Assembly: GCF_000025925.1 (NCBI RefSeq)
Contig: NC_014033.1
Location: 2,340,001 to 2,372,000, forward strand
Source: Xylanibacter ruminicola 23
GTDB taxonomy: Bacteria > Bacteroidota > Bacteroidia > Bacteroidales > Bacteroidaceae
Reading direction: 5' to 3'
Length of the DNA: 32,000 nt
Each line of letters starts with the position of its first letter. The first letter of the stretch is position 1. Of this stretch, positions 1-31,815 are shown in pieces. The notes beneath the pieces are model-generated. The model saw nothing but the letters and a program-made list of their open reading frames with translations, ran no database searches and was not told the origin of the DNA. Position numbers and translations under genes: made by a program.

Positions 1-392
1 TCTGACCTTGACATTTCAGCTTTCTCCTCATCGTTCATGGTGTAGTTTACCAGGCTATCCTTGAATTCGCGGATACACTCCACATCTACGCCAACGGGCT
101 TATCGCTGATGACACAGATGGCAGCCTCCTTGCAATGACTCAGATTAAAATATATCTTCGGATGGCCCACAATGCTGGGTTTGCCGTGCTCGTTATAGTC
201 GAAGATGGGATTATCGGTGATGCCATACTCCTGGCGTAAGCCCTCCTTCAACAGCTGGTAGGCCAGCACGCACAAACGCTGCCCCTGTTCGTGTTTAAAC
301 TTCAGGGCCTGCTCGCGGCGCTGCTCCGAAATCTCAGCCAATGCCGCTTGCAAGTCAAAATCCCATATCTTCTCGCTTATATATACTCCCAT
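1..392 (-). CDS. 4'-phosphopantetheinyl transferase (Sfp/EntD superfamily), N-terminal part; the 3' end runs off the window
   Basis: Minus-strand ATG at 392-390. My translation is MGVYISEKIWDFDLQAALAEISEQRREQALKFKHEQGQRLCVLAYQLLKEGLRQEYGITDNPIFDYNEHGKPSIVGHPKIYFNLSHCKEAAICVISDKPVGVDVECIREF... It carries the GKP, FN(L)SH and G(V)D(V)E motifs typical of PPTases. It is absent from the ORF track because it is open at the window edge. Confidence 0.7.
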   Translation of the reverse strand, partial: MGVYISEKIWDFDLQAALAEISEQRREQALKFKHEQGQRLCVLAYQLLKEGLRQEYGITDNPIFDYNEHGKPSIVGHPKIYFNLSHCKEAAICVISDKPVGVDVECIREFKDSLVNYTMNDEEKAEMSRS

Positions 393-25444: not shown

Positions 25445-25837
25445 CTAATTTTTCTTTTTCTTATTAACATTTAACGGTGTGCTATGCGGAAAGGCTACGC
25501 TATAGGCACTGTCGAGCGCCTTCAGATCGATGCGCCAGAAGCTGATGCCGGTGCTTACGGCCACGATGGCACGCAGCAGCTCGCGATGCTTGCGCGGATA
25601 GAGATTGGGCAGAGGCAGCTCGTTCCAGCCCTCCTGCTCGCACAGATGGCACACGTGCCATATCATATCATCGTTGGCCGCAGCACCGAACCATGCTTTC
25701 AGCACGTTACGTATGCAGAAGCGCTTGCACTGCCCGCCCAGCAGGCGCCTTGTGCGCTCCAGCTTGCGCCAGAGCTGCACAAAACATTCTTGATTATTTT
25801 CGATTTTGACCATTTTGACTTTGACATTTTTAACCAT
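25445..25837 (-). CDS. Hypothetical small Cys-containing protein (130 aa)
   Basis: The ORF starts 5 nt after the stop of the replication gene. It contains CKRFC ... CHLC, a possible zinc-binding pair. The N-terminus MVKNVKVKMVKIENN is encoded by spacer-like AAAATG repeats, so the true start may be the second Met (25813). Confidence 0.45.
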   Translation of the reverse strand: MVKNVKVKMVKIENNQECFVQLWRKLERTRRLLGGQCKRFCIRNVLKAWFGAAANDDMIWHVCHLCEQEGWNELPLPNLYPRKHRELLRAIVAVSTGISFWRIDLKALDSAYSVAFPHSTPLNVNKKKKN

Positions 25838-25842
25838 GACTA

Positions 25843-28224
25843 TTATGACACCTTACGATAATTACCATTCTCATCGATTGTTACCAGCCCCTGTTTGCGC
25901 CAGTTTTTCAGCATCTGGCGCACGGTGTTGATGTTAACCTGGGCACCCTTGATGGCCACCGAGTGCTGCATGGCCTGATCGAACGTAAACTGGCAGTCCA
26001 GTCGCCCAAAAATCGAGTCGTTCTTGCCACGCTTGGTGCGTTCACCATTCATACCGCCAGCATAATCACGACTCTGGAAAGCGTTCTCTATGCGGTCGCG
26101 GAAAAAGTACAGGGCATTCTCCAGCAGCTGGTCGGCTATCACATCGTAGGCATCCAGCATGGTTGGTGTCTGTGCTTTCAGCAGCAGCTCTTTCCACAGC
26201 CCGGGCTGCTGTTTCAGCTTTGCCTCGGCACCGGTCAAGCCGTGCTTCTGTATCAGTGTTTCGCACACCTTGCAAAGCATCAGGCAGCACGTCATTCGCT
26301 GGGCTGTTACGCACACGCGGAAACGCTGACGGGCACGGGTCCTATCGTCGTTCTTCATCGTTTCCAGTCGTATTTTCTCCAGCCACTCCCTACCCCTTGC
26401 CTCCAGCTTGGGCAGCACCACCTCGCCGAACATCAGCGGTAGCAAGTGTGCCACCTGCTGTATGCGGTCGCGCTGGCGATCGGTCAACACGTTAGGCTTA
26501 TCCTCCAGCGGTGCAAAGGTATTGTCGGGTGTGCGGGCCACGGCAATACGACTCTGGAATCCGTCGGTGTAGTTGTTTACCACACGATACAGTGCATCGG
26601 GCGTACCGCACATACACACGTTCCACAGCAGGTGCTCTATATGTACGTTAACGGCATCGGCACTGCGGGCTTCGCGTTCGTACTTACTGCCGTCGTAACT
26701 CTGTCGCAGCATCACCGAAAAGTCGCTCATGGTCGATTTCCATTTCTGCGCTACCGTATCCGCCTCGGGTGTGAACGAAAAACCGTGCTTACCCTCGGTG
26801 TTGGCCAGTCGCTCGGCCAGGTTGGCCACGGTGTTGTTCAGCGTCAGGCAGCGCACGGGCAGCTTTGGTTCTTCGGGCTGTTCCTTCTTGTTTTTGGCGG
26901 CACGTTTCTTGGCGCGCCACTCATCCTCCTGCTGCTGGTACATCTTGTCGAGCGCAGCCACCTCGCTCATCCAGGCCTCTACCACAGGGTCGATACTCCC
27001 CTTACCACTGGCAAAGTCGCCGGCTATGTAAGATATCAGATTCAGTCCGCGCTTGGTGCCGTGCACATCCAACTGTACGCCCGTAGCCAGCGTACCGATA
27101 CAAGGGCAGATGGCCGTTACAACCGGCATCGCCAGTCCCGCACCCACGGCATCTACAGAGTCCTTCACTCCCTGCGGAAGCTTAGGGATTTTTAGCAACG
27201 GACTACAGGACTCTAGGAGGTTTTGTTCACCCAAGTCAACTTCTTCAGCATCTATACAATCAGTCTTGTCAGTCCTCTTGTCCGTGGCTAAACAATTAAG
27301 CACATTTTTTAATCGCAGCGGGAAACCGTTGTACTCCGAGGTGAGGGCGTTCTTGATTTTTTCGCGTTTTTCCTCGGGGGTAAAGCCATCGTAGCAGGGT
27401 ATCACCTGATCCAGCCAGTCGGCATTCTTGCCACAGATATGGCGCAGGTCGCAGGCCAGTTGGTAGGTAAGCGTATCGCGGTCGCCCTCGGTAGGTTCAT
27501 AGCCCTGGTTGTTCACCTCCCAGTACTTTTTGATAATCCTATCAAACGGTATCCCGTGGTACTGCGTAGGATATTTTTTTTGCAACGGAACACAGGACTT
27601 TAGGATTTTTCCTTCGAGGGAATTGTCAACAGAATCAGTCTTGTTAGTCCTGTTGTCCGTTCTTGCGTCCCCCCGGTAGCAAGCGAGCGGAGCTCGAGCG
27701 GCTAAATCTATCTCAAACAGTTCATCATCCAAGTAAATCAGTTCATTGCCCGATGTAGTAAAGAACACGCGGGTGATATCCTTAGCCCCACTATCATAAG
27801 CTACAGATATCAACTCGCTCGCCCATTTCAGGTTCTCCTCCTGACTCAGTTCGGGCTTTCGCGCAAACACCAGATGGTAGCCACCACCACGGGCACTCTC
27901 CTCCATCATCTTCAATCCCAGCTCATCTTTCTTAGCTAAGATGCGCTCACGTACGGCGGGCATCTCATCGGGTGTCAGGTGGTCGATATCCATGCCAACG
28001 GTGGTGCTCATTCGGGTGCTGCCCTTTAGGCTGCCATCATCGTTAGGCAGACAGCTGTAGTTCATCTGCAGCAGCTTGTGTTTCAAAGCCTCCTCACCTG
28101 CGCGTATCCGCTGCACCAATTGCTGTTGCTCGCCACCATTTCGCAAACTCAAATACTCCTCTCTCGTTAGGACGGGACGCATCATCTTCGCCCCATCCTT
28201 TATATAAATTACATGTACACTCAT
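25843..28224 (-). CDS. Replication protein: N-terminal archaeo-eukaryotic primase-like (BT4734/VirE-N type) domain fused to a DUF3987 domain
   Basis: 793 aa. AEP-like motifs: TVGMDIDH (DxD), GGGYHLVF (sGxGxH) and KDITRVFF. The C-terminal half has a P-loop-like segment (AGDFASGKGS). It also resembles YfjI/DUF3987 in LTLNNTVANLAERLANTEGKHGFSFTPEADT...LRQSYDGSKYERE. Confidence 0.8.
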   Translation of the reverse strand: MSVHVIYIKDGAKMMRPVLTREEYLSLRNGGEQQQLVQRIRAGEEALKHKLLQMNYSCLPNDDGSLKGSTRMSTTVGMDIDHLTPDEMPAVRERILAKKDELGLKMMEESARGGGYHLVFARKPELSQEENLKWASELISVAYDSGAKDITRVFFTTSGNELIYLDDELFEIDLAARAPLACYRGDARTDNRTNKTDSVDNSLEGKILKSCVPLQKKYPTQYHGIPFDRIIKKYWEVNNQGYEPTEGDRDTLTYQLACDLRHICGKNADWLDQVIPCYDGFTPEEKREKIKNALTSEYNGFPLRLKNVLNCLATDKRTDKTDCIDAEEVDLGEQNLLESCSPLLKIPKLPQGVKDSVDAVGAGLAMPVVTAICPCIGTLATGVQLDVHGTKRGLNLISYIAGDFASGKGSIDPVVEAWMSEVAALDKMYQQQEDEWRAKKRAAKNKKEQPEEPKLPVRCLTLNNTVANLAERLANTEGKHGFSFTPEADTVAQKWKSTMSDFSVMLRQSYDGSKYEREARSADAVNVHIEHLLWNVCMCGTPDALYRVVNNYTDGFQSRIAVARTPDNTFAPLEDKPNVLTDRQRDRIQQVAHLLPLMFGEVVLPKLEARGREWLEKIRLETMKNDDRTRARQRFRVCVTAQRMTCCLMLCKVCETLIQKHGLTGAEAKLKQQPGLWKELLLKAQTPTMLDAYDVIADQLLENALYFFRDRIENAFQSRDYAGGMNGERTKRGKNDSIFGRLDCQFTFDQAMQHSVAIKGAQVNINTVRQMLKNWRKQGLVTIDENGNYRKVS
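27191..27292. repeat. GGA-octamer palindromic element, copy A (inside the CDS, in frame)
   Basis: Arms TTTAGCAACGGACTACAGGACT (27191-27212) and AGTCCTCTTGTCCGTGGCTAAA (27271-27292). It is translated as LATDKRTDKTD...LLESCSPLLK. Confidence 0.7.
27578..27666. repeat. GGA-octamer palindromic element, copy B (inside the CDS, in frame)
   Basis: Arms TTTTGCAACGGAACACAGGACT (27578-27599) and AGTCCTGTTGTCCGTTCTTGC (27646-27666). It is translated as ARTDNRTNKTD...ILKSCVPLQK. Confidence 0.7.
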
Positions 28225-28237
28225 AGTTTTTCATTTT

Positions 28238-28306
28238 TTTGCAACGGATAACAGGACTTTACGATTTTTCTAATCAATCTTGTCAGTCCTGTAGTCCGTT
28301 GCTAAA
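28238..28306. repeat. GGA-octamer palindromic element, copy C (intergenic, 5' of the replication gene)
   Basis: Arms TTTGCAACGGATAACAGGACT (28238-28258) and AGTCCTGTAGTCCGTTGCTAAA (28285-28306). This is the best-conserved and shortest copy. Confidence 0.7.
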
Positions 28307-28314
28307 TATATTTA

Positions 28315-29013
28315 TTAGAAATTAGGATAACCAAGTTTAGAATTAAGGAATCTCACGCCATCAAGGGTCCAGGTCATATAAACCTTTACTTTCTTCTGGC
28401 CCTTTAAACTATAGGATACGTGCGTGCGCAGGCGTGTAAGGTTGCGGTCGGCCAGATCGTCGCTGATGTTCCAATGCCCATCGCGGCGGTACTGTATGCC
28501 CATGTCGCGCAGAATGGCGTTAAAGTCGTAGGTAGTCATGTTAAACGTCTTGGCCACCTGCGTAGCCGTCAGTGTATCCTCGGCGGGCTCGTTCAGCATG
28601 CGCAAGGTGTTACCAACAATCGCATCGGCTCGGTGCAGGATTTCAACGGCAGAAAGGTCGCGGCCATCAGCAGCGCGGGTTGGAATGTAACCGCCCGTCT
28701 GGCGAATCTGTGGCAGCACCTCGCTGGTAACCCAGTGCTTAAAGGCCTTGGCTTGTGGAAGCTTGGATGAGAGGATGAGTGCGTAAAGTCCGCTCTCGTT
28801 GATGATGATGACACTTCGAACTTGACCTGACAGAACGAATCGTTCGGTCAGCTTATCGTCGTCGTCAATATGGTCGCGAATAGCTTTCGGGGTATTAGTA
28901 TACCCCAATGCTGTGGCAACATCCTTAGCCACAAACATGATTTGATTATTAACCTGGCAAGTACGAATCTCGCCGAAAATTTCACTAGTAAAAATCTGTA
29001 TTGCTGTTTTCAT
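28315..29013 (-). CDS. Phage-type antirepressor, Bro-N domain plus KilAC/ANT C-terminal domain
   Basis: 232 aa. Bro-N motifs: FGEIRTCQVNNQIMFVAKDVATALGY...INESGLYALILSSKLPQAKAFKHWVTSEVLPQIRQTG. The C-terminal part, LTATQVAKTF...NAILRDMGIQYR..., is KilAC-like. Confidence 0.85.
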   Translation of the reverse strand: MKTAIQIFTSEIFGEIRTCQVNNQIMFVAKDVATALGYTNTPKAIRDHIDDDDKLTERFVLSGQVRSVIIINESGLYALILSSKLPQAKAFKHWVTSEVLPQIRQTGGYIPTRAADGRDLSAVEILHRADAIVGNTLRMLNEPAEDTLTATQVAKTFNMTTYDFNAILRDMGIQYRRDGHWNISDDLADRNLTRLRTHVSYSLKGQKKVKVYMTWTLDGVRFLNSKLGYPNF

Positions 29014-29378
29014 TTTGTTGTGAGTTTAGCGAGGGAAGAGGCATCTGAAACGCTGGCCAGCTTGTCTCATGAGATTCCTTCTGCTCACTTCACTCAGCAT
29101 CCCGCTGCCTTTTCAGCGGGGATAAATTGTTATTAATGTTTGTTGTTGTGCATCAGTCATGGATTAGAATAACTAAGGTACGCATGTGTATGCATATGTG
29201 CTGTGTACGCTCGGGCCTACCCGTGCGTTTCGAAGTATCAACATGTCAAAGAACGCTTTCGAAGTATGTGCCTCTCGCCAGAGGTGCTTCTATAGTAATA
29301 ATGTTTGGGGAGTCAGCGTTAATTGGAAAAAAGAAATAACGCTGAGCGAAAAAGTTGGGTATAGCACATAAAAAAAAA

Positions 29379-29410
29379 CGCAGAAATCCTTGCTATAAAG
29401 GTTTTCTGCG
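29379..29410 (-). terminator. Strong intrinsic terminator ending the two-gene hypothetical operon
   Basis: The minus-strand RNA, CGCAGAAAACCUU-UAUAGC-AAGGAUUUCUGCG, forms a 12-bp stem with one A-A mismatch. It is followed by a run of 9 U (plus-strand A-run just upstream at about 29370-29378). It lies 67 nt after the stop at 29477. Confidence 0.7.
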
Positions 29411-29476
29411 AATCTCAAAAAAAATCGAAAAAAAATTCTGCCTTCAGCCGCAAACGCTGAGTGAGGCTATTTTTCG

Positions 29477-30172
29477 CTAAGCGGTCATTTCATCGAACAG
29501 CGCGTCTAAATCCTGATAGGGATCCAGCAAACGCACCAGCCACTTGATGGTTTCCATCTTGTCTATCGGAGCCGTCGTACAGCGTAGGCGGTCGTTACCA
29601 AACTCCTTGTTACCCTCTTTGTTCCAGAAGTGAGCGTTAACCATCACCCAAATGCTGTAGCCCTCGGGCAGACCAACGTATTTCTTGCGGGTCACCAATT
29701 CACGGAACAGCTCGGCCAGCACATTCACATCGTCGAGCCAAACCACACGGGCGTAGCTTTCCTGGCCTGAGAACAAGTCGATGAAGTCGCGCTGCTGCGT
29801 ATTGGCTGCAATCCAGCCCATCTGAACCAGTGCCGTATAGAGTTTCTGAAGCCTGTCGTTCGTCTCGCCACGTTTGGCTTTGTACGAGAACGTCTTGCCA
29901 ATCTTCTCGCTGGTTTTCTTTGGACGGCCACGTTTGGCGGGTATTTTAACCACCCTGCCGTTGTTGTTGTTGTCAGAGGCAGGCGATCCTTGCAGCCGCT
30001 GTTTATCGTATCTCTCCATATCCTTAAGAAAACTGAGAATCCTCGGGTCGTGCGTCTCGATATAATCGGTTATACGCTGCTCAAGGGCAGCCTTTCCAGT
30101 CTGCCATCCACAAATCCTGAATACATCCTCGATGCCTTCAAGATTAATGCCTTGTGTATTCGTTGTCGCCAC
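29477..30172 (-). CDS. Hypothetical protein with an AT-hook-like KRGRPKK segment (231 aa)
   Basis: The ORF has a GTG start at 30172, two nt after the stop of the upstream gene. It has a low-complexity linker (SPASDNNNNGRVVKIPAKRGRPKKTSEK) and I recognise no family. Confidence 0.6.
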   Translation of the reverse strand: MATTNTQGINLEGIEDVFRICGWQTGKAALEQRITDYIETHDPRILSFLKDMERYDKQRLQGSPASDNNNNGRVVKIPAKRGRPKKTSEKIGKTFSYKAKRGETNDRLQKLYTALVQMGWIAANTQQRDFIDLFSGQESYARVVWLDDVNVLAELFRELVTRKKYVGLPEGYSIWVMVNAHFWNKEGNKEFGNDRLRCTTAPIDKMETIKWLVRLLDPYQDLDALFDEMTA

Positions 30173-30174
30173 GC

Positions 30175-30810
30175 CTATAGGTTCTCTACAAATCCTTCTG
30201 CCGTTGATGATTCGGGAGTGTATTTAATCTTTATAACGTGGTCGTATAAGTCCTCCCAGTACTCACGTTCCTCAGTCAGACGTTTGCCCAATTCTTCAAG
30301 CGTTGGCTCAATGTGGTGTAGATTCAGGATTGTCAACTCCATGAGCTGTGCAAAGTAGCCGTCACTACAACCGCCAACTTCGATGCCAACCTCGACAACC
30401 GGTTCTTTCGACTTGAAGCCGATGCCATATTCGCGCAGTTTCTCTTTCAGCGGTTCGGCCTCTTCGGCAGAATTTTCCCAGGCTTCGTATCCCCAAGGAT
30501 CGTCACCATCCGCGTTTGCTTTCTGTGTTGCGCGTTGGATGCACAGCAGGAAGAACTTCTGCACGTCTATGCGCATGTCGTCCTCGCTGCAAAGCACTTC
30601 GCAGTCGGTCAGTTCCGCACGGTTCCACACCACACCTTTTGCGCCATGCTTGTACTGCACAATCGGATGACTGTGCGTTTCCAACGTATATTTGCCGTCC
30701 TCACCGATGCGGCTTTCGCCCACAATGTACGTAGCTATATGCTTGCCCACCTCGCCATTACAATAGATGTAGTCGAAGGGCGCTTCCAGTTTTAAAATCT
30801 GAGTTTCCAT
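30175..30810 (-). CDS. Hypothetical acidic protein (211 aa)
   Basis: ATG at 30810 with a -7 box 33-40 nt upstream. It is rich in D/E and I recognise no family. Confidence 0.6.
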   Translation of the reverse strand: METQILKLEAPFDYIYCNGEVGKHIATYIVGESRIGEDGKYTLETHSHPIVQYKHGAKGVVWNRAELTDCEVLCSEDDMRIDVQKFFLLCIQRATQKANADGDDPWGYEAWENSAEEAEPLKEKLREYGIGFKSKEPVVEVGIEVGGCSDGYFAQLMELTILNLHHIEPTLEELGKRLTEEREYWEDLYDHVIKIKYTPESSTAEGFVENL

Positions 30811-30842
30811 AAAATCCTGTATAGTAACATTCTTTTCGGTTG

Positions 30843-30850
30843 CAAAAATA
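30843..30850 (-). promoter_or_regulatory. -7 box (TATTTTTG on the minus strand) for the hypothetical two-gene operon
   Basis: Plus-strand CAAAAATA is the reverse complement of TAnnTTTG, 33-40 nt upstream of ATG 30810. Confidence 0.45.
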
Positions 30851-31014
30851 ATACTTTTCTATCAATAAAGCATGCAAAAAATCAAAAATGTTACACAAAC
30901 GGTTCCATATTACCTGATGCCACAGAACCGTCCCCTGACAGGTTTCGGCACGGCTCTCGTTTTGCGATTTTTTATTTTCTGATTGAAAAACTTGCACGTT
31001 TCAAAAATACTTCG

Positions 31015-31022
31015 TATCTTTG
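31015..31022 (+). promoter_or_regulatory. -7 box TATCTTTG for the TA cassette
   Basis: Exact TAnnTTTG, 27 nt upstream of ATG 31049. It lies inside the TTG-initiated ORF-track extension (30983), which argues for the ATG start. Confidence 0.5.
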
Positions 31023-31048
31023 CAACCGTAAGACAAATTTATCGCATT

Positions 31049-31273
31049 ATGACAGCAATTACTATCAACATTCCCAATCACGAAGTCAGCTTCTTTAAGA
31101 AGATGATGGCGAAGATGGGGTGGACGTACAGCGAAACCGATGTTGTGCGGTCAGCTGCCACACCCAAGGAGAAGACACTCGCCAAGGTTGACCACGCTTT
31201 CAAACAGTTGCGTCAAATGAAAGACGGCCAGTTGGAAGGTGTTAATGCGGAGGATTTGCTTAATGAACTGTAA
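31049..31273 (+). CDS. Putative antitoxin (74 aa) of a RelE/ParE-type TA pair
   Basis: MTAITINIPNHEVSFFKKMMAKMGWTYSE...EDLLNEL. It is small, overlaps the toxin ATG by 11 nt, and is preceded by its own promoter. Confidence 0.65.
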   Translation: MTAITINIPNHEVSFFKKMMAKMGWTYSETDVVRSAATPKEKTLAKVDHAFKQLRQMKDGQLEGVNAEDLLNEL

Positions 31274-31604
31274 GATTGAAGCAACCCCAGACTTTGCCCG
31301 CGAACTCAAACAACTCGCCAAGCGCTATCCCTCGATGAAGGACGACTATCGTAACTTCATCGATGCACTACGCAAGTCACCCCTCATGGGCGAGCCGCTT
31401 GGCAAACACCTACGCAAGGTCCGTTTCTCAATTGCATCAAAGGCCAGGGGGAAGAGTGGTGGCGCTAGGGTTATCACTCATACTGTGCTTGTGGAGTCTG
31501 ATGGTGCAGACATCAAGCTTGTTACTATCTACGACAAGTCTGACCAAGTCAACATAACAGACAAGGAACTGAAGCAACTGATGAAGAAGAATGGTCTCGA
31601 ATAG
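31263..31604 (+). CDS. Type II toxin, RelE/ParE superfamily (113 aa)
   Basis: MNCKIEATPDFARELKQLAKRYPSMKDDYRNFIDAL...KGKSGGARVITH...IKLVTIYDKSDQVNITDKELKQL. The K-S-G-G-x-R-V-I and IYDKS motifs are typical of this toxin family. I prefer ATG 31263 over the GTG at 31239. Confidence 0.8.
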   Translation: MNCKIEATPDFARELKQLAKRYPSMKDDYRNFIDALRKSPLMGEPLGKHLRKVRFSIASKARGKSGGARVITHTVLVESDGADIKLVTIYDKSDQVNITDKELKQLMKKNGLE

Positions 31605-31673
31605 TATATTACGCCAGCACTGTGATACCATTTATATATGAGGTTATCGCCATCCAAGCGTAGCAAAAAATAC

Positions 31674-31708
31674 AGAGAGCCATGCCCCAGCGGCACGGCT
31701 CTCTTTTT
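31674..31708 (+). terminator. Intrinsic terminator after the toxin gene
   Basis: AGAGAGCCATGCC-ccagc-GGCACGGCTCTCT followed by TTTT. The stem is 13 bp with one mismatch. Confidence 0.65.
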
Positions 31709-31748
31709 GCGATGCGATAACTCTGCGAAAGGGATTTTTATATCTGTT

Positions 31749-31787
31749 CGGGTATAATTTTGTTATAATTACTTAAAATTATACCCG
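31749..31787. promoter_or_regulatory. Perfect 13-bp inverted repeat CGGGTATAATTTT-N13-AAAATTATACCCG; candidate operator of the XRE regulator
   Basis: It lies 53-91 nt upstream of ATG 31840. Related half-sites (A/G)TACCCGT..G.TATAAT recur at 31781-31799 and 31823-31841. Confidence 0.4.
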
Positions 31788-31815
31788 TATTGATATAATC
31801 AAACGATTTAATACT

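Follow-up and report, generated by a model that had tools for sequence, protein, structure and literature searches.

Palindromic units in a DUF3987 gene as probable members of a polar repeat family linked to GxxExxY nuclease genes in rumen Prevotella

Introduction

The REP/REPIN repeats of Escherichia and Pseudomonas are short imperfect palindromes, dispersed mostly between genes. Their partner RAYT, an HUH/Y1 IS200-like transposase, is encoded by one low-copy, vertically inherited gene that the same repeats flank in inverted orientation. Rickettsia palindromic elements (RPEs) also lie between genes and, in addition, within them, where they are translated in frame at permissive sites; we know of no nuclease gene associated with RPEs. 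Here we describe a 32,000-nt stretch of the Xylanibacter ruminicola 23 genome (contig NC_014033.1, positions 2,340,001 to 2,372,000; hereafter the window), in which three palindromic units, copies A, B, and C, lie within and just upstream of the gene for a 793-aa DUF3987 protein. We consider it likely that these copies are members, devoid of an open reading frame (ORF), of a family of polar palindromic repeats found in rumen Prevotella, the long form of which contains a gene for a GxxExxY nuclease. The closest working analogy is REP/REPIN-RAYT, with a different enzyme.

A 2012 survey gave the function of the GxxExxY family as 'Unknown' (PMC3424549). Our literature searches returned no description of a link between GxxExxY and palindromes; most subscription journals lay outside their coverage, and a prior description is possible.

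Results

Three palindromic units in and beside the DUF3987 gene

The units and their two host genes are arranged as follows.

25843-28224, (-) strand: host gene, encoding the 793-aa BT4734-like (N-terminal, weak)/DUF3987 protein, whose two inter-domain linkers hold copies A and B
28315-29013, (-) strand: BRO-N/KilAC (anti-repressor-like) gene, upstream of and co-directional with the host gene; copy C holds the junction of these tandem genes
27188-27292, (-) strand: copy A, short palindromic element without an ORF, left arm to right arm; in frame as residues ~312-346 of the 793-aa protein, in the linker before the DUF3987 domain
27575-27667, (-) strand: copy B, short palindromic element in the orientation of copy A; in frame as residues ~186-216, in the linker after the N-terminal BT4734-like domain
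28234-28309, (-) strand: copy C, short palindromic element and the best preserved; in the spacer from the BRO-N/KilAC stop codon to the ATG of the 793-aa ORF

A repeat search of the window resolved two direct-repeat families of three copies each (27188-27224, 27575-27611, and 28234-28270; 27243-27292, 27618-27667, and 28257-28306) and inverted arms inside the units (22 nt at 86% in copy C, 16 nt at 88% in copy B). The arm pattern GCAACGGANNACAGGACT, with at most three mismatches, matches the 32-kb window seven times against 0.29 expected, and none of 100 shuffles reaches seven. Six of the matches belong to copies A-C and the seventh is a lone arm at 563-580. These results bear out the coordinates and anatomy of three units with inverted arms that a first-pass annotation, made from the letters of the window, had proposed. 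As it also described, copies A and B keep the frame of the 793-aa ORF open and are translated within it (...LATDKRTDKTD...LLESCSPLLK and ...ARTDNRTNKTD...ILKSCVPLQK, respectively), and copy C fills the 90-bp spacer between this ORF and the BRO-N/KilAC gene, 5' of the ATG. Copy C has an identical counterpart in L121/L122 (L numbers denote the loci used for comparison).

On the (-) strand of the gene, the predicted RNA folds of copies A, B, and C reach -32.4, -25.3, and -30.7 kcal/mol, with z-scores against shuffles of -3.9, -3.3, and -8.4. The unit ends read TTTT-hairpin-AAAA on both sides. A scan of the whole window with Rfam covariance models gave no match at E<=1, and a terminator scan placed no terminator-like site on copies A-C. 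The T tract that should follow the hairpin is missing, and we rejected an identity as intrinsic terminators; the nearest terminator-like prediction, a + strand stem at 27169-27188, ends where the T-run of copy A starts.

The label PrimPol-DUF3987 given to the host protein holds in part. The DUF3987 match is solid, whereas 'PrimPol' is weakly backed: the N-terminal domain shows a sub-threshold Pfam match to BT4734-like_N (PF08800; E 0.03) and weak Foldseek matches to Prim-Pol structures (E 8.5e-3, TM score 0.31).

The element is dispersed and polar

Scanned against one genome per species, the arm pattern yielded at least 120 listed matches. About half of those listed are contigs of rumen Prevotella or other Prevotellaceae with full palindromes, so that many further copies exist in related genomes; the remainder are single arms in unrelated taxa (Streptomyces and others), at chance level. 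Among viral contigs of IMG/VR the pattern gave 106 single-arm matches and no full palindrome, which identifies the single-arm matches as chance. We set apart matches in Melainabacteria that carry GCAACGGATAACAGGATT, as they belong to a 184-191-nt tandem array that looks unrelated. In Candidatus Avigastranaerophilus this array starts with GCAACGGATAACAGGATT (L047 3002-3364 and 4501-5039; also L041, L100, L084, and L103).

Seventy-six complete palindromes were mapped in loci L001-L200 and the window, mostly in intergenic positions. Their arms, seen as tandem octamers in the first-pass annotation, indeed consist of three GGACT-centred units spaced 8-9 nt apart. The consensus is tTtAGCAACGGACtACAGGACTaAcaggacT for the left arm (54 copies) and, as the reverse complement, TTTtGCAACGGACTACAgGACTtnAGGAcTTTT for the right arm (51 copies); the left arm is laid out as TTTAGCAACGGACTACAGGACT-aACA-GGACTgatt and the reverse complement of the right arm as TTTTGCAACGGACTACAGGACT-tnA-GGACTTTTT. 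The whole element thus runs from TTTAGCAAC and three GGACT units through a short loop to three complementary units and GTTGCAAAA. Since left and right arms differ in a fixed manner, every copy can be assigned a direction.

Between genes, the element starts 4-30 nt past a stop codon and ends 13-30 nt ahead of the next ATG. Thirty are co-directional with both neighbours, four are antisense to both, and five share the direction of the downstream gene alone; these counts include some orthologous sites and are not fully independent. In-ORF copies with an assigned orientation are all in sense (23/23), as expected because the reverse orientation, read directly from the consensus, has stop codons in at least two of the three frames. 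Antisense RNA hairpins are predicted to be more stable than sense hairpins (31 versus 9 intergenic copies; G-U pairs, 104 versus 39), the copies being related by ancestry and not independent. This excess may only mirror the fixed differences between both arms.

Short copies at unrelated sites have a common loop consensus, and near-identical contigs differ in carrying one or two tandem copies. At one junction, two species share elements that are 100% identical in both arms and diverged in the loop, their flanking coding DNA being 76-77% identical. These observations argue that the short form itself propagates or is homogenized and that its arms are not decaying freely.

The long form encloses a GxxExxY gene

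The lone arm at the other end of the window belongs to a deleted copy of a longer unit.

554-590, (-) strand: left arm (TTTTTTAGCAACGGACTACAGGATTTTAGGATTT) belonging to a GxxExxY unit; rmuC stops immediately 5' of it and the remnant ORF follows immediately 3'
404-553, (-) strand: GxxExxY remnant, a 49-aa ORF (407-553) plus stop codon, with an internal deletion of ~245 nt according to the alignment with the intact unit of L034

The remnant ORF scores 43.3 bits against TIGR04256 (cut-off 35) over model positions 2-44 of 116, in agreement with the earlier view that a half copy of the palindrome flanks a GxxExxY remnant. Lost with the deletion were the catalytic D...ExK part and almost all of the right arm, of which only TGCTAAAAA is left at ~400-412; the PD-(D/E)xK core, truncated before D66/E76/K78, is not intact in this copy. 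At the same rmuC junction in L034, the same arms enclose an intact 123-aa ORF (130.5 bits against TIGR04256). The junction presents an allelic series of full unit (L034), internally deleted unit (window), and solo left arm (L015).

Five more GxxExxY homologues, 70-82% identical, are all found in the order PfpI-[GxxExxY]-IspD-RecG, co-directional and with arms on both sides, so that arms enclose intact GxxExxY ORFs at two different gene junctions. In L026 and L080 the PfpI-IspD junction holds a short palindrome instead, and a second one occupies IspD-RecG, a junction that is empty in other contigs; long and short forms are found at the same junction. In the long form, the ATG of the ~125-aa ORF immediately follows the left arm, and its stop codon falls within the right arm or next to it. 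The terminal inverted repeats are common to the short palindromes and the longer coding element. Arms beside GxxExxY genes are often multiplied in tandem, with three left arms in L215/L217 (~1050-1200), two in L219 (~1110-1200), and two right arms in L201 (1867-1950).

The arm unit varies by lineage, being of the ACAGGACT, CTACGGACT, or GAACGGAC type, and in three lineages it matches the nearby short copies. Contigs in which CTACGGACT or GAACGGAC arms flank the GxxExxY gene contain short palindromes with the matching unit and lack those of the ACAGGACT type. The 1.5 Mb of Prevotella DNA that we retrieved holds only two GxxExxY ORFs, one of them broken, as against ~50 independent short copies, and no GxxExxY paralogues matching other palindrome families. 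The coding partner of the element is a low-copy, long-resident nuclease gene, more like RAYT than a multi-copy jumping transposase. The first-pass proposal that the units are derived from a GxxExxY-carrying element, in the manner of a miniature inverted-repeat transposable element (MITE), is supported in this refined form: a polar element with a low-copy resident nuclease as partner.

GxxExxY proteins and their arms in other phyla

All 120 GxxExxY homologues listed are assigned to PF13366 (PDDEXK_3), and a profile search at E<=1e-3 collected 20,610 clusters at 50% identity. The AlphaFold2 model (mean predicted local distance difference test score 92.5) shows a minimal nuclease fold of the PD-(D/E)xK type, with Cas4, lambda exonuclease, and Hjc as its nearest matches; the PD-(D/E)xK homing endonuclease I-Bth0305I is also among the fold matches. 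A sequence search against PDB chains returned no match, which leaves the fold search as the informative one. The motif glutamate E27 and the triad D66, E76, and K78 are invariant in intact homologues. Many members (P0241-P0250 and others) are ~260 aa long and consist of two tandem GxxExxY domains, the second often divergent.

A tblastn search of PLSDB plasmids added seven GxxExxY genes from other lineages. Each of the five that are annotated is squeezed between two co-directional host genes, as on a Sphingomonas replicon, where it separates fabD from fabG. Four of the seven have inverted flanks of ~8-nt units that exceed every shuffle.

Bacteroides finegoldii: arms of 30 nt, made of CAGAGGAC units
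Bernardetia: arms of 28 nt
Sphingomonas: arms of 25 nt, made of CGCGAAG units
Treponema: arms of 13 nt

Over all GxxExxY loci tested, the arms stand above all shuffles in 10 of 13. On a Fusobacteria plasmid (L230, CP102406.1) a direct repeat of ~22 nt, CAGATTTAATCCGTGTACCTAT, flanks the GxxExxY gene (~920-1000 and ~1376-1440). It contains a CACGGATT unit that recurs in the Treponema arms and in one Prevotella palindrome family.

The linkers of the DUF3987 gene are a hot spot and its upstream spacer is equally variable

Homologues of the 793-aa protein number in the thousands, and the best 120 are 77-94% identical to it. In their alignment, the positions of copies B and A behave as cassettes. 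Site B carries five unrelated peptides among proteins more than 90% identical to each other, and proteins 91-94% identical to the 793-aa protein have four other unrelated sequences there. At the DNA level, the linker peptides of 80 orthologous loci are translations of different palindromes built of short repeated units, among them GGGGACAGG, CACGAATCT, GAAGTTAAA, and CCCCTAAGTTAGGGG families. Across the orthologues, sites A-C are occupied by at least nine unrelated palindrome families or by nothing. The first-pass annotation had suggested looking for alleles without the units, and orthologous genes indeed have different sequences or short linkers in these positions. Chimeric and nested palindromes occur as well in this set (L121-L200), with chimeras, for example, in L128, L152, L153, and L151. 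Among unique alleles, a fold z-score of -3 or below is reached by 18/47 at site A and 16/48 at site B, versus 0/46 control segments of the same genes.

The spacer of site C is empty (stop codon, 5-10 nt, ATG) in six orthologues (L125, L129, L136, L155, L140, and L199) and holds other unit-repeat families in many others. Many tandem-gene spacers contain one-sided runs of 7-9-nt units with no inverted partner (for example, TGAACTA x3, CAACTCT x3, and CACGAAT x3), located at L201 ~2630-2660, at L211 ~2335-2365, and in the site C alleles of L126, L127, L139, L146, and L156. They are possibly solo arms of other families.

Several of the linker and spacer families are also present outside the DUF3987 gene. 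In an unbiased genome sample, 4/6 loci with in-ORF copies are homologues of the 793-aa protein, which argues for a genuine hot spot in its linkers. The nesting suggests that one palindrome may attract others; island DNA may be more exposed as single strands; or residence on a mobile island may cause copies to be spread, and sampled, more frequently. The hot spot, the co-directional polarity of the element, and the low-copy, long-resident state of GxxExxY were not foreseen in the first-pass annotation.

Other proteins carry in-frame copies too. The GGACT element is read through in the methyltransferase PrmC on another contig. In L029 (3958-6921(-)) two copies join an unassigned N-terminal part, an S-methyl_trans domain, and a B12-binding domain into a 988-aa MetH-like ORF, a case in which the element may have fused neighbouring genes by read-through. 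IspD contains an in-frame palindrome of the GAACGGAC type with tandemly multiplied right-arm units (L226 10392-11396 and L227 3961-4893). The interrupted proteins are 334 and 310 aa long, versus 241 aa in relatives, and near-identical contigs show a 24-aa length polymorphism.

The island around the host gene

An island located between pyrG and gltB harbours the DUF3987 gene. It was examined over window positions 25445-31700 and L229 1-10000 and encodes HU-HIG, Big_2, HipBA, RelE-like, BRO/ANT, and DUF3987 proteins. The island has no recognisable integrase or tRNA gene, and the window as a whole has no tRNA genes. Pfam, NCBIfam, and PHROG gave no match for four island ORFs: three of 130, 211, and 231 aa, and the 793-aa ORF outside DUF3987. 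An inverted repeat at 31738-31798 (24-nt arms with 88% complementarity and 13 nt between them) is located close to the island's far edge, just past a RelE-like pair of small ORFs at 30983-31604. At the other end of the window, the reading of ORF 3-392(-) as a phosphopantetheinyl transferase was dropped, as Pfam does not support it.

Discussion

The results suggest the following working model. Both forms of the element sit in sense in the few bases between co-directional host genes, which makes joint transcription probable. Copies A and B lie in disordered linkers and would survive in the gene because one reading frame of the element is open; they are translated as linker peptides. The GxxExxY nuclease would recognise the arms with their repeated units, probably in a hairpin or cruciform DNA structure, and would thereby copy, move, or homogenise the short elements in trans, in parallel to RAYT and REP/REPIN; that GxxExxY moves or maintains the repeats is our inference. 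The units would play no part in replication of the island.

Several observations weigh against this model. Comparison of filled with empty junctions revealed no target-site duplication and no clean boundary that could be defined, so that any transposition chemistry is presumptive. So is dispersal in the source genome: the 38 kb covered (the window and 6 kb beyond) contain only copies A-C and the GxxExxY remnant, the further 6 kb being free of copies. The higher stability of antisense hairpins lends no support to selection on the sense transcript. At GxxExxY genes of the ACAGGACT type both arms are of the 'R' kind, and the short L/R elements are therefore not simple deletions of those copies. 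GxxExxY looks vertically inherited at one junction in many species, which fits a domesticated resident as well as a mobile gene, and the co-variation of arms and the arm identity could arise from gene conversion alone. Finally, 3/13 GxxExxY loci have no inverted arms, the one from Fusobacteria having a direct repeat and two having none.

Two alternatives keep the palindromes and reassign the roles. The elements might serve the host as RNA, being intercistronic mRNA hairpins for processing, stability, or insulation, comparable to the role proposed for REP sequences, that selection on the host operon maintains, with GxxExxY merely a resident. The strict stop-to-start placement between co-directional genes (~9:1 in sense), the complete conservation of arms where the flanking coding DNA has drifted to 76-77% identity, and the strong predicted hairpins agree with such a role, as does the likeness of an ORF inside a long stem within a transcript to rRNA intervening sequences. 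Speaking against it are the lack of an Rfam match in the window at E<=1, the missing T tract, hence no intrinsic terminators, the antisense folds that surpass the sense folds, and the many junctions that close relatives leave unoccupied at no visible cost; in-ORF copies, moreover, would put a processing site inside an mRNA that needs to be translated. We judge this explanation doubtful, and it is compatible with an element propagated by GxxExxY. The reverse order of events, in which the short palindromes spread otherwise and a homing-type GxxExxY gene invades their loops, the long form being derived from the short one, appears quite improbable to us. It would account for a junction that holds either form, for the exact position of the ORF in the loop, and for the match to I-Bth0305I; free-standing homing endonuclease genes are known between conserved genes. 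However, GxxExxY genes of distant phyla have lineage-specific arms of a like ~8-nt design, which is easier to understand if arms and ORF belong together, the copy in the window is plainly a deletion derivative, and GxxExxY is low-copy despite dozens of potential target loops.

The first-pass annotation had offered a further reading, in which the units are iteron-like binding sites or an origin for the BT4734-like/DUF3987 replication protein of the island. Three copies clustered in and just upstream of the gene, with arms of short repeated units, do resemble iterons, and origins inside rep genes are known, lambda O being an example. However, the element is found in many genomes at housekeeping junctions (PfpI-IspD, IspD-RecG, and rmuC) and inside PrmC and IspD. 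In orthologues its units are exchanged or absent: site B differs entirely between close relatives of the 793-aa protein, the six orthologues named above have nothing at site C, and the families at these sites are unrelated to each other. The dispersal and the interchangeability together defeat the iteron reading, which we regard as extremely improbable; scattered copies had been named in the first-pass annotation itself as a sign against it. The units in the window should no longer be taken as marks of a replication origin.

Returning to the repeat family with its GxxExxY long form, we tentatively extend it beyond Prevotella. GxxExxY proteins may be the nucleases of a widespread two-part system, present in several phyla and akin to REP/RAYT with a PD-(D/E)xK nuclease in the role of the HUH transposase, in which a low-copy gene between co-directional host genes, enclosed by inverted arms of ~8-nt units, maintains or spreads cognate ORF-less palindromes in gene junctions and protein linkers, with BT4734-like/DUF3987 islands as preferred landing sites and perhaps as vehicles between genomes; we hold this to be a possibility somewhat short of even. 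It offers a testable function for a very large orphan family. If true, a second class of enzyme, unrelated to the first, would join the few proteins that have been linked to dispersed bacterial palindromes. The in-frame 'selfish DNA in genes' of Rickettsia is extended to the dominant Bacteroidota of gut and rumen, and the hypervariable linker peptides, otherwise confusing for the annotation and alignment of thousands of DUF3987 proteins, find an explanation.

Comparison with known systems

Several systems resemble the Prevotella element in part. Like the iterons of P4 ori/crr or of lambda ori in gene O, its short repeated units lie near and inside a replication gene, but iterons are replicon-specific and conserved with their protein, whereas the Prevotella units are dispersed over genomes and interchangeable with unrelated elements in orthologues. 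Free-standing homing genes (T4 seg/mob, I-Bth0305I) are likewise small nuclease genes between conserved co-directional genes and vary in presence among relatives; unlike GxxExxY units, they have no unit-built inverted arms and leave no dispersed ORF-less palindromes. The intervening sequences of 23S rRNA in Leptospira and Coxiella ('four helix bundle'/S23p) also carry a small ORF in a long inverted-repeat stem, in sense inside a host transcript, and S23p, like GxxExxY, is a large, multi-phylum family of unknown function. In contrast to them, the Prevotella element resides in mRNA spacers or protein linkers and its protein has a nuclease fold.

MITEs, such as Correia/NEMIS of Neisseria or ERIC, are short, non-autonomous, and scattered between genes, with terminal inverted repeats and a longer protein-coding relative, as observed here. 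For the Prevotella element, however, we found no insertion sequence-type transposase and no target-site duplication, and its coding partner is low-copy and long resident at one locus. With RPEs it shares in-frame palindromes translated at permissive sites as well as copies between genes; it is unrelated to them in sequence and phylum and has a strong hot spot in the BT4734-like/DUF3987 family.

The correspondence is closest with REP/REPIN-RAYT. Beyond the traits named at the outset, in both systems the repeat type co-varies with the repeats flanking the gene, copies cluster or duplicate in tandem, and arms are conserved beyond neutral expectation. The differences lie in the enzyme, a PD-(D/E)xK nuclease of ~125 aa in place of an HUH/Y1 transposase, and in the repeats, whose arms consist of three ~8-nt units, which occupy tandem-gene spacers predominantly in sense, and several copies of which are translated inside genes.

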